Source: a virus. Taken from it: a DNA stretch of 43,509 nt. The notes below the pieces were generated by a model, which made no database searches, had not been told where the DNA came from, and saw only the letters and a list, made by a program, of their open reading frames with translations. Where the stretch lies: IMG/VR virus record IMGVR_UViG_3300029286_001647; one strand, 5' to 3'. The position numbers were made by a program, and so were the translations under genes. Of this stretch, positions 35,838 to 38,935 are shown piece by piece (within the stretch, counting starts at the first letter, position 1; each line of letters opens with the position of its first letter).

Positions 35838-36518
35838 TTACGAAGGCTTCTTCGCAGCCGCCATCAGAGCGGCGACCTCGTCATTGACAGACTGAGTTCC
35901 GGCACCCGCCGTGTACTTGTCAACGAGATCATCGACCTTTGCCGAAGCAGGCATGGACTCTTCCGCCGCTTGTGCTTCCGCATCGGCGCGATCCGCCGCC
36001 CGCTTGAGATCGTTCAAACGGGAGAAAGCGCTACTGCCGCTGAGTCCAGCCATGCCTTCCGCAAGACTCTTATGGATGTCTGCGGATTCCTTCTGGATGA
36101 CGAGTCCAGAGTAATCAGCTTTCGCCGTAGAGATCTGATTGTCAAGGACATCGATCTGACCCTGCGCCGCATTGATCAGCTTGCGGTTCTTGGCGATCTG
36201 CAACTCAAGCTTCTTGAGAGTTGCCTCTTCCTTCTGCTTCTCGCCAACGATGCGAGTCACATCTTCGAGCTGACCTTGATCTGCCGCACTCTTTGCGGCG
36301 AGGGTCATTTTCGCGATGCTCTCTCGCGACGCATTCGCTTCCTTCTCCTGCATGATGATGTCCGCTTTCGCAGTGCGGATCTTCATGCCGAACTCATCAC
36401 GCTTTGTCTCAGCATCCTTGATGTCATACTTCCCATCAATCACGGCATCCTTGACCTGATCTGCCGCCTGATCCTGAACATTCCGAAACCGATTCATCAA
36501 ACTTCTCCAAAATCCCAT
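35838..36518 (-). CDS. PspA/IM30 (Vipp1) family protein
   Basis: 'MGFWRSLMNRFRNV' plus heptad coiled coil parallels E. coli PspA (recalled); AGGAG ribosome-binding site. Confidence 0.8.
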   Translation of the reverse strand: MGFWRSLMNRFRNVQDQAADQVKDAVIDGKYDIKDAETKRDEFGMKIRTAKADIIMQEKEANASRESIAKMTLAAKSAADQGQLEDVTRIVGEKQKEEATLKKLELQIAKNRKLINAAQGQIDVLDNQISTAKADYSGLVIQKESADIHKSLAEGMAGLSGSSAFSRLNDLKRAADRADAEAQAAEESMPASAKVDDLVDKYTAGAGTQSVNDEVAALMAAAKKPS

Positions 36519-36593
36519 CGTAGTATCTCCTGCTTAAAAGTTTTTCCTTGTTCCAAAACCTGTTTACTTCGTTATCGACACGTTGTTTCTTTC

Positions 36594-37421
36594 TTAATCG
36601 CCTCCGCCGCATCCTCCTCCGCAATCACTGCAACCGCCGCCATCGTAAGACGAACCGCCATCATACGAAGACCCACCATCGTAAGAATGACTTGTTGCCT
36701 CGTGCGATCCGTAATCATAAGGCTGGCTTGTCGCATCGTGATGATGAACCGGCGATTCAAAGGATGGAGCAGGCGCTTCTTGCGGTTCGCTCTGAACATC
36801 GATGATTTCATCCTGCGAGGACGCAGTATTGTCAGCGAGTTCTTGTGCGACCATCAATCCGGTGGCGGCAAGCTGCGAGAATACTTCGGTGACTTCATCC
36901 ATACCGACCTCGTCTTCAACAAGACCGCCGACAACATTGTCCTGTGTCAGATCTTCTTCGACTTCCGTTTGCGCGAGGAATCCGTCGAAAGCCTTCTTCG
37001 ACTGGATGAGAGCAGATTGCAAAGACGTAATCGCAGACATCAGCTCTCCCTCGCTCAGGTTGCCGAAAGGAACGGTATTGGCGAGAACAAGATCCCATCC
37101 CGCCTCGATCTCGTCTGCCGGTGCCTTCTCCGAATCGACCAACATACAGACAGAGTAAGGCAGAATTCGGGAGTTGAGTTCCAGCAGAGTCCATGCGAAG
37201 ATGTCTGCCATACCCATCTCCAACTCTTTCGTGTTCGCCAACAGACAAACGATCTTCAGATCTTTGCCGTCATTGACGGATTTCAGGAGAGTGACGAAAG
37301 GATGTTTTTCTCCGCCAACAAGAAGACTGACAGAATCCATCTTCTCATTGACAACCCGATACCCCATATCCTTCAGGGTAATCACGACTTCGGAAATGTT
37401 CTTCATGTTTTCCACTTTCAT
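36594..37421 (-). CDS. YbjN/DUF2170(YjfI)-like domain protein with Gly/Ser/Tyr/Cys-rich tail
   Basis: N-domain loosely chaperone-like; position upstream of PspA mirrors E. coli yjfI-yjfJ; tail 'SYDGGSSYDGGSSYDGGGCSDCGGGCGGGD'. Confidence 0.4.
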   Translation of the reverse strand: MKVENMKNISEVVITLKDMGYRVVNEKMDSVSLLVGGEKHPFVTLLKSVNDGKDLKIVCLLANTKELEMGMADIFAWTLLELNSRILPYSVCMLVDSEKAPADEIEAGWDLVLANTVPFGNLSEGELMSAITSLQSALIQSKKAFDGFLAQTEVEEDLTQDNVVGGLVEDEVGMDEVTEVFSQLAATGLMVAQELADNTASSQDEIIDVQSEPQEAPAPSFESPVHHHDATSQPYDYGSHEATSHSYDGGSSYDGGSSYDGGGCSDCGGGCGGGD

Positions 37422-37435
37422 TGCTCCAGTAGAGG

Positions 37436-38149
37436 TTAACGACTTCCTTGAACATCATTCTCGCTGAGGACACACCCCAGCAAGATAACGATAAAGCTGC
37501 CTTCGGTATTGACCATCTTGTCCTTCTGAACAGTTGTCGTCTCGAAACGCCCTCTGTCCTCTACAGCAGTAGTCTGCTGAGTACTGATCGAGTTGAACTC
37601 CAAGAACAGATAATACGGATTTTCCGTCTTGGTAGGGTCTGCCTTGAACTCAATCACCGTTGCAAATGTCTGATTGGAACCTTCAACGCAAGTCCCATAC
37701 CAGTTCGCTTGCCGCTCGAAAACGACAGTCGCACCGTCGATAGTCTCCGTAATGCTCTTCGTGAAGACCAGATCATTCGGCTTGAAGTTGTTCAGGTCTT
37801 TCGGCTCTTCGAAAACCCAGAACATATTCCGATTGAGCATATCCTCGCGGCTACCAGAGGGAATGTCATCCGGCACCCAGTACGCCTTGAGATCGTAATC
37901 TTCGCCAGATCCCATTACGACAAGGATCCATTTCAGATCGCGGAAAACGATGTCATACAGAACGATCCAGAATTGACCGTCCGATGATGTAATCTTGCGC
38001 GGAGTGCGAACGATCTCGAAATCTGCGCCTTTCTCCGCAAACTCCACCTTGCGGCTTTGAAGCTCCCGAATCGTCTGGATGTCCGACAGGGTAATAAAAT
38101 CTCCCCGTACCAGACTCTTCCAATATGTTGCGCCTTTAGGCTGTCCCAT
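37436..38149 (-). CDS. hypothetical protein (237 aa), PspA-cluster member
   Basis: ORF track. Confidence 0.5.
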   Translation of the reverse strand: MGQPKGATYWKSLVRGDFITLSDIQTIRELQSRKVEFAEKGADFEIVRTPRKITSSDGQFWIVLYDIVFRDLKWILVVMGSGEDYDLKAYWVPDDIPSGSREDMLNRNMFWVFEEPKDLNNFKPNDLVFTKSITETIDGATVVFERQANWYGTCVEGSNQTFATVIEFKADPTKTENPYYLFLEFNSISTQQTTAVEDRGRFETTTVQKDKMVNTEGSFIVILLGCVLSENDVQGSR

Positions 38150-38179
38150 TGCAGTAGTCTCCTTCTTGAGGGTTATTGA

Positions 38180-38935
38180 TTACAAACGCGACTTGTAGAT
38201 CGAAACAACAACAGCACCGACAACGATGATGATCAAGATAGTCCAGAAAACACCCCATCCGTGACTACCATTGTCAACATATACAGTGCCAGGTTGCCCA
38301 TATGCGACAGGAGAACCGACATAGTATCCGTTGTGGTTCATCAGAACCGACATCATTGCGGCGTCTCGCATTGCATCGTACATAATCCAAGCGCCGCCAG
38401 GTCCGTAATACCCATATCCGCGGTGAATAGGATCGTATACGACATTGTAGCTGCGTCCGCCGGATGAATACGTCGAGGGAATATGTTCCGGGCGCTTCGG
38501 CGGTTCTTTGTCGAAAGTACTCGAATACTTTGTAGAGTTTTTCGTCTGGAAATCTTTGACGGCAGCGTCCTTGTTGTCGAAAGCTTTTCCTTGCATCTTG
38601 GCAGATTCATACGCCTTCTGCTCCGCCGCCGTCCTTGTGTTCGCTACTGCGGGAGTAGATTTGTTCCCGCCCCAAGACGAACTCGATTTGGACGGAGTGG
38701 ATGGCGATGCGGCAGGAGTGGACGGAGTCGATTTGCTCCCACCCCATCCAGAACTCGGCGCGCTCGGTTTCGGAGCAGCAGAGGGAGTAGACCTTGAGCC
38801 TCCCCACGAGCTTCCGCTGCTTCGCGAACCAGACGAGCTGCTTCCTCCGCGCGCAAACGCGGCATCGCCGGTGACGAGAAACAGACTACCCAAAACGACC
38901 AAACAAACTGACAGACACTTTCCAAACCGTTTCAT
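38180..38935 (-). CDS. secreted S/G-rich repeat protein with C-terminal TM anchor
   Basis: signal peptide; 3x 'S(S/G)WGG(S/N)(R/K)STP'; terminal 'WTILIIIVVGAVVVSIY'. Confidence 0.55.
   Translation of the reverse strand: MKRFGKCLSVCLVVLGSLFLVTGDAAFARGGSSSSGSRSSGSSWGGSRSTPSAAPKPSAPSSGWGGSKSTPSTPAASPSTPSKSSSSWGGNKSTPAVANTRTAAEQKAYESAKMQGKAFDNKDAAVKDFQTKNSTKYSSTFDKEPPKRPEHIPSTYSSGGRSYNVVYDPIHRGYGYYGPGGAWIMYDAMRDAAMMSVLMNHNGYYVGSPVAYGQPGTVYVDNGSHGWGVFWTILIIIVVGAVVVSIYKSRL

Follow-up and report, generated by a model that had tools for sequence, protein, structure and literature searches.

PspA takes its name from the stress to which phages subject bacteria, and in the Psp and Lia systems small membrane proteins (PspBC and LiaI, respectively) serve as anchors or sensors for the effector. 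Here we describe a multi-gene PspA system that is carried by phages themselves, namely a cassette of four genes (S, X, Y, and pspA) and an adjoining K+ channel gene found in the 43,509-nt stretch of DNA of IMG/VR virus record IMGVR_UViG_3300029286_001647 (from here on, this whole stretch will be referred to as the window, and all coordinates are window positions unless another locus, denoted by an L number, is named). The described systems closest to it include the CesT/Tir-PspA dyads of bacteria, described computationally by Ravi et al. (2024, mSystems, PMC11237479), in which group 2 has an 8-transmembrane (8TM) DUF350 protein, the Ctha_1186 lipoprotein, and a β-rich DUF4178 protein, and group 3, exemplified by Escherichia coli yjfIJKLMC, combines a K+ channel with DUF350, DUF1190, and DUF2491. 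In Pseudomonas aeruginosa, the bac operon (bacA-F) encodes the DUF2170 protein BacA (PDB 8q8o), which has been proposed to be a chaperone or a negative regulator, and the PspA homolog BacB (PA3731) (PMC10948618). The channel has its counterpart in Synechocystis GluR0, a glutamate-gated K+ channel with a reported role in cell-volume and K+ homeostasis (PMC13099474). The only phage precedent that we found in the literature is a transcribed pspA-like gene next to terD in the Jug jumbo gut phages, which is mentioned in passing (Sci Adv 2026, PMC12880540). The kind of system is already known, and what appears to be new is its multi-gene phage-borne form, the evidence from fusions of S to X, and the constancy of the K+ pore.

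A preliminary description of this DNA had listed four co-directional open reading frames (ORFs), and we recovered all four on the minus strand with identical boundaries. In the order of transcription, they encode S (38180-38935), a 251-aa type-I membrane protein as judged from ORF, hydropathy, composition, and family alignment; X (37436-38149), a 237-aa soluble, acidic, all-β protein that is predicted to be cytoplasmic and to be the partner of S; Y (36594-37421), a 275-aa protein in which a predicted DUF2170/CesT/YbjN-type chaperone-fold domain (residues ~1-150) is followed by a phage-specific acidic low-complexity extension; and PspA/IM30 (35838-36518), a 226-aa effector of the bacterial ESCRT-III superfamily (PF04012). 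The preliminary description had left out the adjoining gene for a GluR0-type ligand-gated K+ channel (34644-35738, minus strand), which is likely to be the fifth gene of the module. The four ORFs are real genes, as homologs occur in the same order across many independent contigs and the ratio of nonsynonymous to synonymous substitution rates (dN/dS) between two phage loci (L009 and L011, with saturated synonymous sites) is 0.07-0.18. As had been noted previously, the island is richer in GC than its surroundings (0.515 at 35838-38935 compared with 0.407 for the rest) and ranks as the top 3.1-kb stretch of the window; the GC content at third codon positions (GC3) of its four genes is 0.54-0.63 compared with 0.38 ± 0.08 in the other ORFs. 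Unlike these four genes, the channel gene has a GC content (0.411) that is ordinary for the window.

The search for the same gene block in bacterial genomes, which the preliminary description had proposed, revealed it as an operon with the order DUF350 (8TM)-S-X-Y-PspA-K+ channel in at least six phyla. The locus searches were seeded with the conserved domain of S, the X alignment being too divergent to serve as a seed. For the bacterial scan, the S domain was compared with one genome per species and the loci were resolved with custom hidden Markov models, which yielded 12 loci in Pirellulaceae (contigs of 1.5 and 1.8 Mb), Spirochaetales, Victivallales, Hatepunaea, Bryobacterales, Spartobacteria, Chthoniobacteraceae, Armatimonadia, and others. 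Pirellulaceae, Victivallales, Hatepunaea, Bryobacterales, Verrucomicrobiota, and Armatimonadota all keep the operon. Genes on the opposite strand flank it in L016 and likewise in L021, there after one extra co-directional HD-domain ORF downstream of the channel, and L015, whose context is cellular, has the genes in this arrangement too. In phage-like contigs, the order S-X-(Y)-PspA-(channel) recurs about 10 times outside the window: as S-X-Y-PspA in L005; as S-X-Y-PspA-channel in L010; as S-X-PspA in L009, L011, and L013; as S-X, two small 2-TM proteins with a KGWG motif, PspA, and channel in L014 and L030 (a 461-kb IMG/VR phage); as S-X, followed after gaps by PspA and channel, in L029 and as S-X only in L031 (both ~120 kb); and as DUF350-S-X-Y-PspA in L028 (a 408-kb IMG/VR phage), with the channel 2 kb downstream and with three tail-tube genes, a baseplate hub gene, and a primase gene directly upstream of the cassette. 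DUF350 is the first gene in every bacterial operon for which upstream sequence is available and in phage L028, and no DUF350 gene was found in the window or in L005, L009-L011, L013, and L014 (within up to 10 kb on each side, less at contig ends). The phage cassette is therefore the bacterial operon from which, in most cases, the DUF350 gene has been lost. Two further observations were made at these loci. In L017, from a Rubripirellula metagenome-assembled genome, one ORF (1688-2362) runs from the first ~160 residues of X into the last ~50 residues of Y and looks like a deletion or an assembly chimera; and, in L011, a gene for an Apyc1-type anti-Pycsar nuclease, a known phage anti-defense gene, lies at 4237-5013, two genes upstream of S-X-PspA.

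The channel protein of the window matches SBP_bac_3 over residues 49-377 (104.5 bits, E = 4.6e-30), with an Ion_trans_2 match inside it at residues 172-249 (52.4 bits, E = 4.8e-14), and also matches Lig_chan-Glu_bd (39.9 bits, E = 5e-10). A periplasmic ligand-binding domain is thus split by a two-TM pore with the filter TVGFGD, which is the architecture of GluR0. The ORF is open to a TTG at 35783; in L001, which is the same phage in another assembly, the gene is called from the ATG at 35738. Channels of the SBP_bac_3 type occur in the window, L010, L014, L020, L021, and L030, following PspA in L010, L014, L030, and L021. The channels of other loci have a voltage-sensor-type Ion_trans architecture (L016-L018) or a TrkA/RCK architecture (L015 and L019), and so three non-homologous gating architectures, all with a K+ pore, stand beside the module. 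The gating architectures are displaced while the K+ pore stays, which implies a need of the module for K+ conductance as such, and in at least six phyla this PspA operon has the K+ pore as its constant partner. We further note an extremely hydrophobic 69-aa ORF (34434-34643) that begins at the base after the channel stop codon, and small ORFs follow the channel in L010 and L014 as well.

The product of 35838-36518 had been described as a clear PspA/IM30 homolog, and it is one: it scores 38.3 bits against PF04012 (gathering score, 33.9) over residues 7-221 and model positions 10-216 of 220, which is not a generic coiled-coil match. Since its score with the NCBIfam PspA equivalog model (27.9) is far below the cutoff (243), it is not an ortholog of E. 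coli PspA. A PDB search with the single window sequence gave no match and a family profile was required; the profile of 14 cassette PspAs aligned end to end (profile 2-222 to chain 1-217) with Nostoc Vipp1 (PDB 6zvr, E = 3.3e-29) and also matched Synechocystis Vipp1, Synechocystis PspA (E = 6e-10), and E. coli PspA (PDB 4whe, E = 1e-9). The alignment to the solved structures covers the amphipathic helix at the N terminus as well as the V(N/D)DE(V/L)AAL motif (DVDDELAAL-type) at the C terminus. The hydrophobic moment of residues 2-19 (GFWRSLMNRFRNVQDQAA) is 1.45, a value reached by only 1.6% of shuffled sequences, as befits an amphipathic helix α0, and the protein, at 226 aa, does not have the C-terminal extension of Vipp1. 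We considered membership in the YjfJ subfamily and rejected it: identity to E. coli YjfJ is 20%, hhalign with the family profile gave E = 0.02 at a probability of 2%, and profile comparisons place the protein closer to Vipp1/PspA. Matches of this PspA to LmuB and PbeC in PADLOC (E ~1e-3) were dismissed as coiled-coil noise. In L012, the PspA homolog downstream of S-X (4146-4487) starts with a hydrophobic TM-like segment and has no amphipathic helix, and the contig ends inside the gene.

Y had been called YbjN/DUF2170-like, an assignment that holds at the level of fold and gene context and fails with sequence models. The window protein gave nothing above threshold against Pfam, NCBIfam, PHROG, and PADLOC; the Pfam model of DUF2170 (PF09938) found no match among 11 members of the Y family at E ≤ 1; and the comparison of the Y profile with E. 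coli YjfI by hhalign was not significant. Members of the Y family do have full-length sub-threshold Pfam matches to YbjN (0.0022), CesT_Tir_1 (0.0046), and CesT (0.062). In the AlphaFold2 (AF2) model, the N-terminal domain, which runs helix, four strands, helix, two strands, and helix, appears to share the fold of the solved DUF2170 protein and to belong to the CesT/Tir-YbjN chaperone-fold superfamily; the link of Y to DUF2170 thus probably lies in fold and not in sequence. As to context, 75 bp separate the end of Y from the PspA start in the window, and Y lies directly upstream of a pspA-family gene in L005, L010, L015, L016, L018, L020-L022, L024-L026, and L028 as well. The C-terminal tail that the preliminary description had found bizarre, with SYDGGS three times and then CSDCGGGCGGGD, is indeed present. 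It belongs to an extension of 90-135 aa in phage Y proteins that is strongly acidic (36594-36970, residues ~150-275, with 27 Asp/Glu and no Lys/Arg in the window; 10450-10858 in L005) and that is missing from bacterial Y proteins and from the Y of phage L028. In the two very divergent phages of the window and L005, the tail ends in CGGG(D)CGGGD, the L005 protein with GGDCGGGDCGGGD. With a flavoprotein gene nearby, we considered whether this Cys/Gly tail marks a precursor of a ribosomally synthesized and post-translationally modified peptide and rejected the idea, as the flavoprotein is paired with DFP (CoaB) and the tail ends in Asp and not in Cys. In place of Y, L014 (10710-11151) and L030 (9240-9675) encode two paralogous 2-TM proteins of ~70-77 aa, those with the shared KGWG motif.

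For S, all three elements of the earlier description as a secreted S/G-repeat protein with a TM anchor were found. A hydrophobic signal-like segment (residues 10-28) is followed by AFA|RGG; residues 31-100 are 73% Ser/Gly/Thr/Pro, contain three S(S/G)WGG(S/N)(R/K)ST repeats, and are predicted to be disordered; a Lys-rich helical stretch leads to a juxtamembrane domain; and a TM segment (residues 228-246) is followed by KSRL at the C terminus. Because of the positive-inside pattern at this TM segment and KSRL, the bulk of S lies outside the cell. The juxtamembrane domain is rich in aromatic residues and Met, is conserved as RPxYIP...GGxSYNVxYN...GGYGYYGPxGAWIMYDAMRDAAMM in the family alignment, and defines a family. 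X was modeled by AF2 with a mean predicted local distance difference test score (pLDDT) of 88.4 and a predicted template modeling score of 0.82 as an all-β protein that combines an SH3-like barrel at the N terminus with a long-hairpin β-sheet, and the model has no meaningful structural neighbor in the PDB or among the viral structures of BFVD. Neither S nor the window X gave anything above threshold against Pfam, NCBIfam, PHROG, and PADLOC, and no Pfam model matched in 43 members of the X family; S and X therefore constitute two families without a Pfam model. An exhaustive profile search of 1.84 billion sequences returned 504 representatives of the X family at E ≤ 1e-3. In L022, L026, and L027, which belong to three phyla, S and X form one polypeptide with the layout signal sequence-S-TM-linker-X; such fusions make up 30 of 155 X-family representatives (~20%), and 5 more have a degenerate S remnant, a TM segment, and X. 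The fusions, found in many bacteria, fix the topology, with S outside and X in the cytoplasm, and they argue that S and X would form a physical transmembrane unit.

Compared with the operons of Ravi et al., the cassette likewise has a chaperone-fold gene immediately upstream of pspA, a secreted or surface-exposed protein, a β-strand-rich cytoplasmic protein, a K+ channel, and, in its bacterial versions, the 8TM DUF350. It differs from them in having no polyamine genes (spermine synthase and ATP-grasp), in that its PspA is Vipp1/PspA-like and not YjfJ-like, and in that most phage copies have no DUF350. The parallel to yjfI-yjfJ drawn in the preliminary description gains strength from the bacterial cassette operons, which begin with DUF350 (the YjfL family). 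S and X also gave no match to the DUF1190, DUF2491, and DUF4178 models except for one weak DUF4178 match (X of L021, E = 0.019 over 47 residues; none in 43 other members). The suggestion that they might be DUF2491 (YjfK) and DUF1190 (YjfM) proteins failed in both Pfam and hhalign comparisons. For X, DUF2491 matched none of 6 members at E ≤ 10, none of 43 at E ≤ 0.1, and not the window protein, and the 43-sequence profile against E. coli YjfK gave E = 0.082 at a probability below 1%. For S, there was no Pfam match to DUF1190 and the hhalign comparison with YjfM was not significant, the sole resemblance being one of low complexity between the R-G-G...S-rich...WGG mature N terminus of S and the C-terminal SRGGYGRSSSARGHWGG of YjfM. 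In hhalign against E. coli YjfI, YjfJ, YjfK, and YjfM, two-sequence profiles were too insensitive, missing even the PspA-YjfJ pair; larger profiles did not reach significance with YjfK, YjfI, and YjfJ either, and we therefore rejected membership in DUF2491, DUF1190, and YjfJ. Neither S-X fusions nor viruses or phages are mentioned by Ravi et al. (PMC11237479). We conclude from these comparisons that the bacterial DUF350-S-X-Y-PspA-channel operon is a variant of the CesT/Tir-PspA neighborhoods of groups 2 and 3.

Like BacA, Y is encoded directly upstream of a PspA gene; unlike BacA, to which its sequence similarity is undetectable by Pfam and hhalign, it stands among other operon genes and, in phages, has the 90-135-aa acidic tail. 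The cassette shares with the classical Psp system (E. coli PspABC/F), the Lia system (Bacillus subtilis LiaIH), and cyanobacterial Vipp1 a PspA/IM30 effector with an amphipathic N-terminal helix and may share the logic of PspBC and LiaI, in which membrane anchor or sensor proteins serve the effector. It has, in contrast to Psp and Lia, no homologs of PspB, PspC, PspF, LiaI, or LiaF, and the putative anchor is the unrelated S-X pair. The channel resembles GluR0 in its SBP_bac_3 domain split by a two-TM K+ pore and in its TVGxGD filter and differs from it in being encoded on a phage and linked to PspA. By their description, the Jug phages present a similar case of a PspA-like gene near Ter-type stress genes in a huge phage, as the window has a TerY-like vWA-PP2C-kinase cluster upstream of the cassette; in contrast to the window, there is a single pspA-like gene there, and no S, X, Y, or channel partners are described (PMC12880540).

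In neighbor-joining trees of PspA and X, the phage copies are polyphyletic and take up several positions among the bacterial copies, which suggests several acquisitions. L009, L011, and L013 group with Verrucomicrobiota in both trees, and the window groups with L014 on a deep branch. The proteins of the window are 16-33% identical to any other copy and 25-33% to any bacterial copy; because of the latter figure, the transfer cannot be recent. The bacterial origin that had been suggested for the GC-rich island is borne out by the homologous bacterial operons together with the GC contrast. The hope of identifying a donor through the bacterial block was disappointed, as no donor can be named at identities of 16-33%. 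The low dN/dS between L009 and L011 indicates purifying selection between phage copies, and hence that the genes are maintained in phages. We also note that in most phage loci (window, L010, L011, L013, L028, and L030) the cassette has a GC3 that lies 0.06-0.19 above that of the phage genes around it and that this is not consistent in bacterial loci. A raised GC3 is hard to square with an old divergence; repeated acquisition and codon selection are two candidate causes.

That the window is phage DNA is a well-supported inference from gene content and related loci, short of proof, because no capsid or terminase gene is present in it. Nearly all of its genes are small, close-packed, and on the minus strand. 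Matches to PHROG and Pfam comprise RtcB, two tandem N6/N4 methyltransferases, an ADP-ribosylglycohydrolase, a tail-fiber-like protein, NUDIX, a DNA polymerase exonuclease-like protein, an M23 endolysin-like peptidase, a T4 endonuclease V-like protein (Pyr_excise), and NADAR; no tRNA genes were found in the window. The same sequence also came out of independent assemblies of several metagenomes. A megablast of 33000-43509 against the GenBank phages (50,697 records) gave no match, the window and L030 PspAs found none among the same phages by tblastn, and the window PspA alone as a query found no match in IMG/VR.

We propose, with a probability of about 0.5 and by analogy with Psp-type systems, that the module keeps the inner membrane of the infected cell sealed and energized through a long infection, until programmed lysis. 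S would span the inner membrane, with its disordered S/G-rich region and juxtamembrane domain sensing or anchoring at the envelope from the periplasm, and X, bound to S at the cytoplasmic face, would act as the adaptor that recruits the effector. Y may be a DUF2170/CesT-type chaperone that holds or regulates PspA, in line with the role proposed for BacA. PspA would polymerize on damaged membrane via its amphipathic N-terminal helix and seal proton leaks, and the K+ channel, which would be co-transcribed, could set or rescue membrane potential or turgor. The threats thereby countered would be depolarization induced by infection, by holins, or by host defenses. The analysis establishes the identities or folds of PspA, Y, and the channel, the topology of S and its fusion to X, a gene order kept in bacteria and phages, and purifying selection; we infer which proteins bind each other, which way the K+ effect runs, and how the phage would benefit. 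If the proposal is true, large phages actively maintain the integrity and potential of the host membrane, which bears on lysis timing, burst size, and resistance to membrane-targeting abortive infection, of which many new systems are currently coming to light, and the cassette offers a testable architecture (sensor/anchor, adaptor, chaperone, effector, and channel) for a Psp class that so far has genomic descriptions only. Several results weigh against this proposal. PspA is non-adjacent in L019 and L031; Y is dispensable, being absent from L009, L011, and L013 and replaced by the two small 2-TM proteins in L014 and L030, and its AF2 model has low confidence as a whole (pLDDT 45.6); capsid and terminase genes are missing from the window; and, because most phage versions are without DUF350, the module in phages may rely on a component of the host or function in another way than the bacterial one.

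A narrower version of the repair idea, which we regard as possible though unlikely, is that a complete PspA system, captured by huge phages more than once, and the ligand-gated K+ channel reseal and re-polarize the inner membrane against abortive-infection effectors or a premature holin; if true, it would constitute a class of anti-defense that repairs damage instead of inhibiting a defense protein. Alternatively, the module could control the membrane by setting its potential on purpose, for holin or lysis timing, superinfection exclusion, or the reprogramming of transport, with S, X, and Y as regulators. Viral K+ channels are known to depolarize hosts in the case of the chloroviruses (Kcv), and it fits such control that the K+ channel is the most constant extra partner and has a freely swapped gating domain, that the phage-like GC content of the window channel suggests a longer residence or a separate recruitment, and that the M23 endolysin-like gene lies ~2 kb downstream. 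Yet free-living bacteria, for which lysis timing is irrelevant, have the same gene set in the same order as a housekeeping-type operon, and none of the loci examined has a holin or spanin linked to the cassette; we therefore hold deliberate control to be rather improbable.

If the cassette were instead a passenger, that is, a recently transferred bacterial island with no role in infection, or if the contig were a bacterial mobile element, then the strongly atypical GC and GC3 of the island, the missing capsid and terminase genes, and the failure to match any of the GenBank phage records would be accounted for. We doubt this strongly, since the 25-33% identity to bacterial copies speaks against a recent transfer, many divergent phage-like contigs have the cassette intact and in this order, in one case beside tail and baseplate genes, the phage copies are under purifying selection, and the gene content is typical of large phages (RtcB, the methyltransferase pair, the T4 endonuclease V-like protein, NADAR, ADP-ribosylglycohydrolase, a tail-fiber-like protein, and small co-directional ORFs). 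Least probable of all, in our estimation, is that PspA tethered by S-X buds or tubulates the inner membrane into vesicles or compartments for replication or assembly. PspA and Vipp1 are, according to published work, ESCRT-III homologs that remodel, fuse, and tubulate membranes, and the cassette is present in phages of 408 and 461 kb; however, the module was taken whole from bacteria without such compartments, neither a Vps4- or PspF-type ATPase nor phage-nucleus or vesicle marker genes are linked to it, and its distribution among phages is patchy.

Several features around the cassette remain to be described. The 125-bp AT-rich region upstream of S (38936-39060, minus strand) has promoter-like hexamers and an AAGGA ribosome-binding site and is the probable start of the transcription unit of the cassette, although the evidence is weak: a scan for promoter and terminator consensus sequences did no better than on shuffled sequences. 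Further upstream (39732-43112) are genes for a vWA protein (42231-43112, GC 0.529), a PP2C phosphatase (41063-41968), an HNH endonuclease (40735-41193), and a Ser/Thr kinase, and we take the vWA-PP2C-kinase arrangement to resemble the TerY-P triad of Ter stress systems. The cluster was considered as a part of the module and rejected, as it is unlinked to the cassette in every other locus. Compared with L001, a single C is missing at 39764-39765, which splits the gene for the 563-aa protein kinase into the overlapping ORFs 39732-40751 (339 aa) and 39061-39780 (239 aa); the cause is either a mistake in the assembly or a natural frameshift variant. On the other side of the cassette, at 32763-34422 and downstream, the window contains a split CoaC (Flavoprotein)/CoaB (DFP) pair and a DUF4419 protein (241 bits), and the pair implies that steps of coenzyme A biosynthesis would be encoded by the phage.

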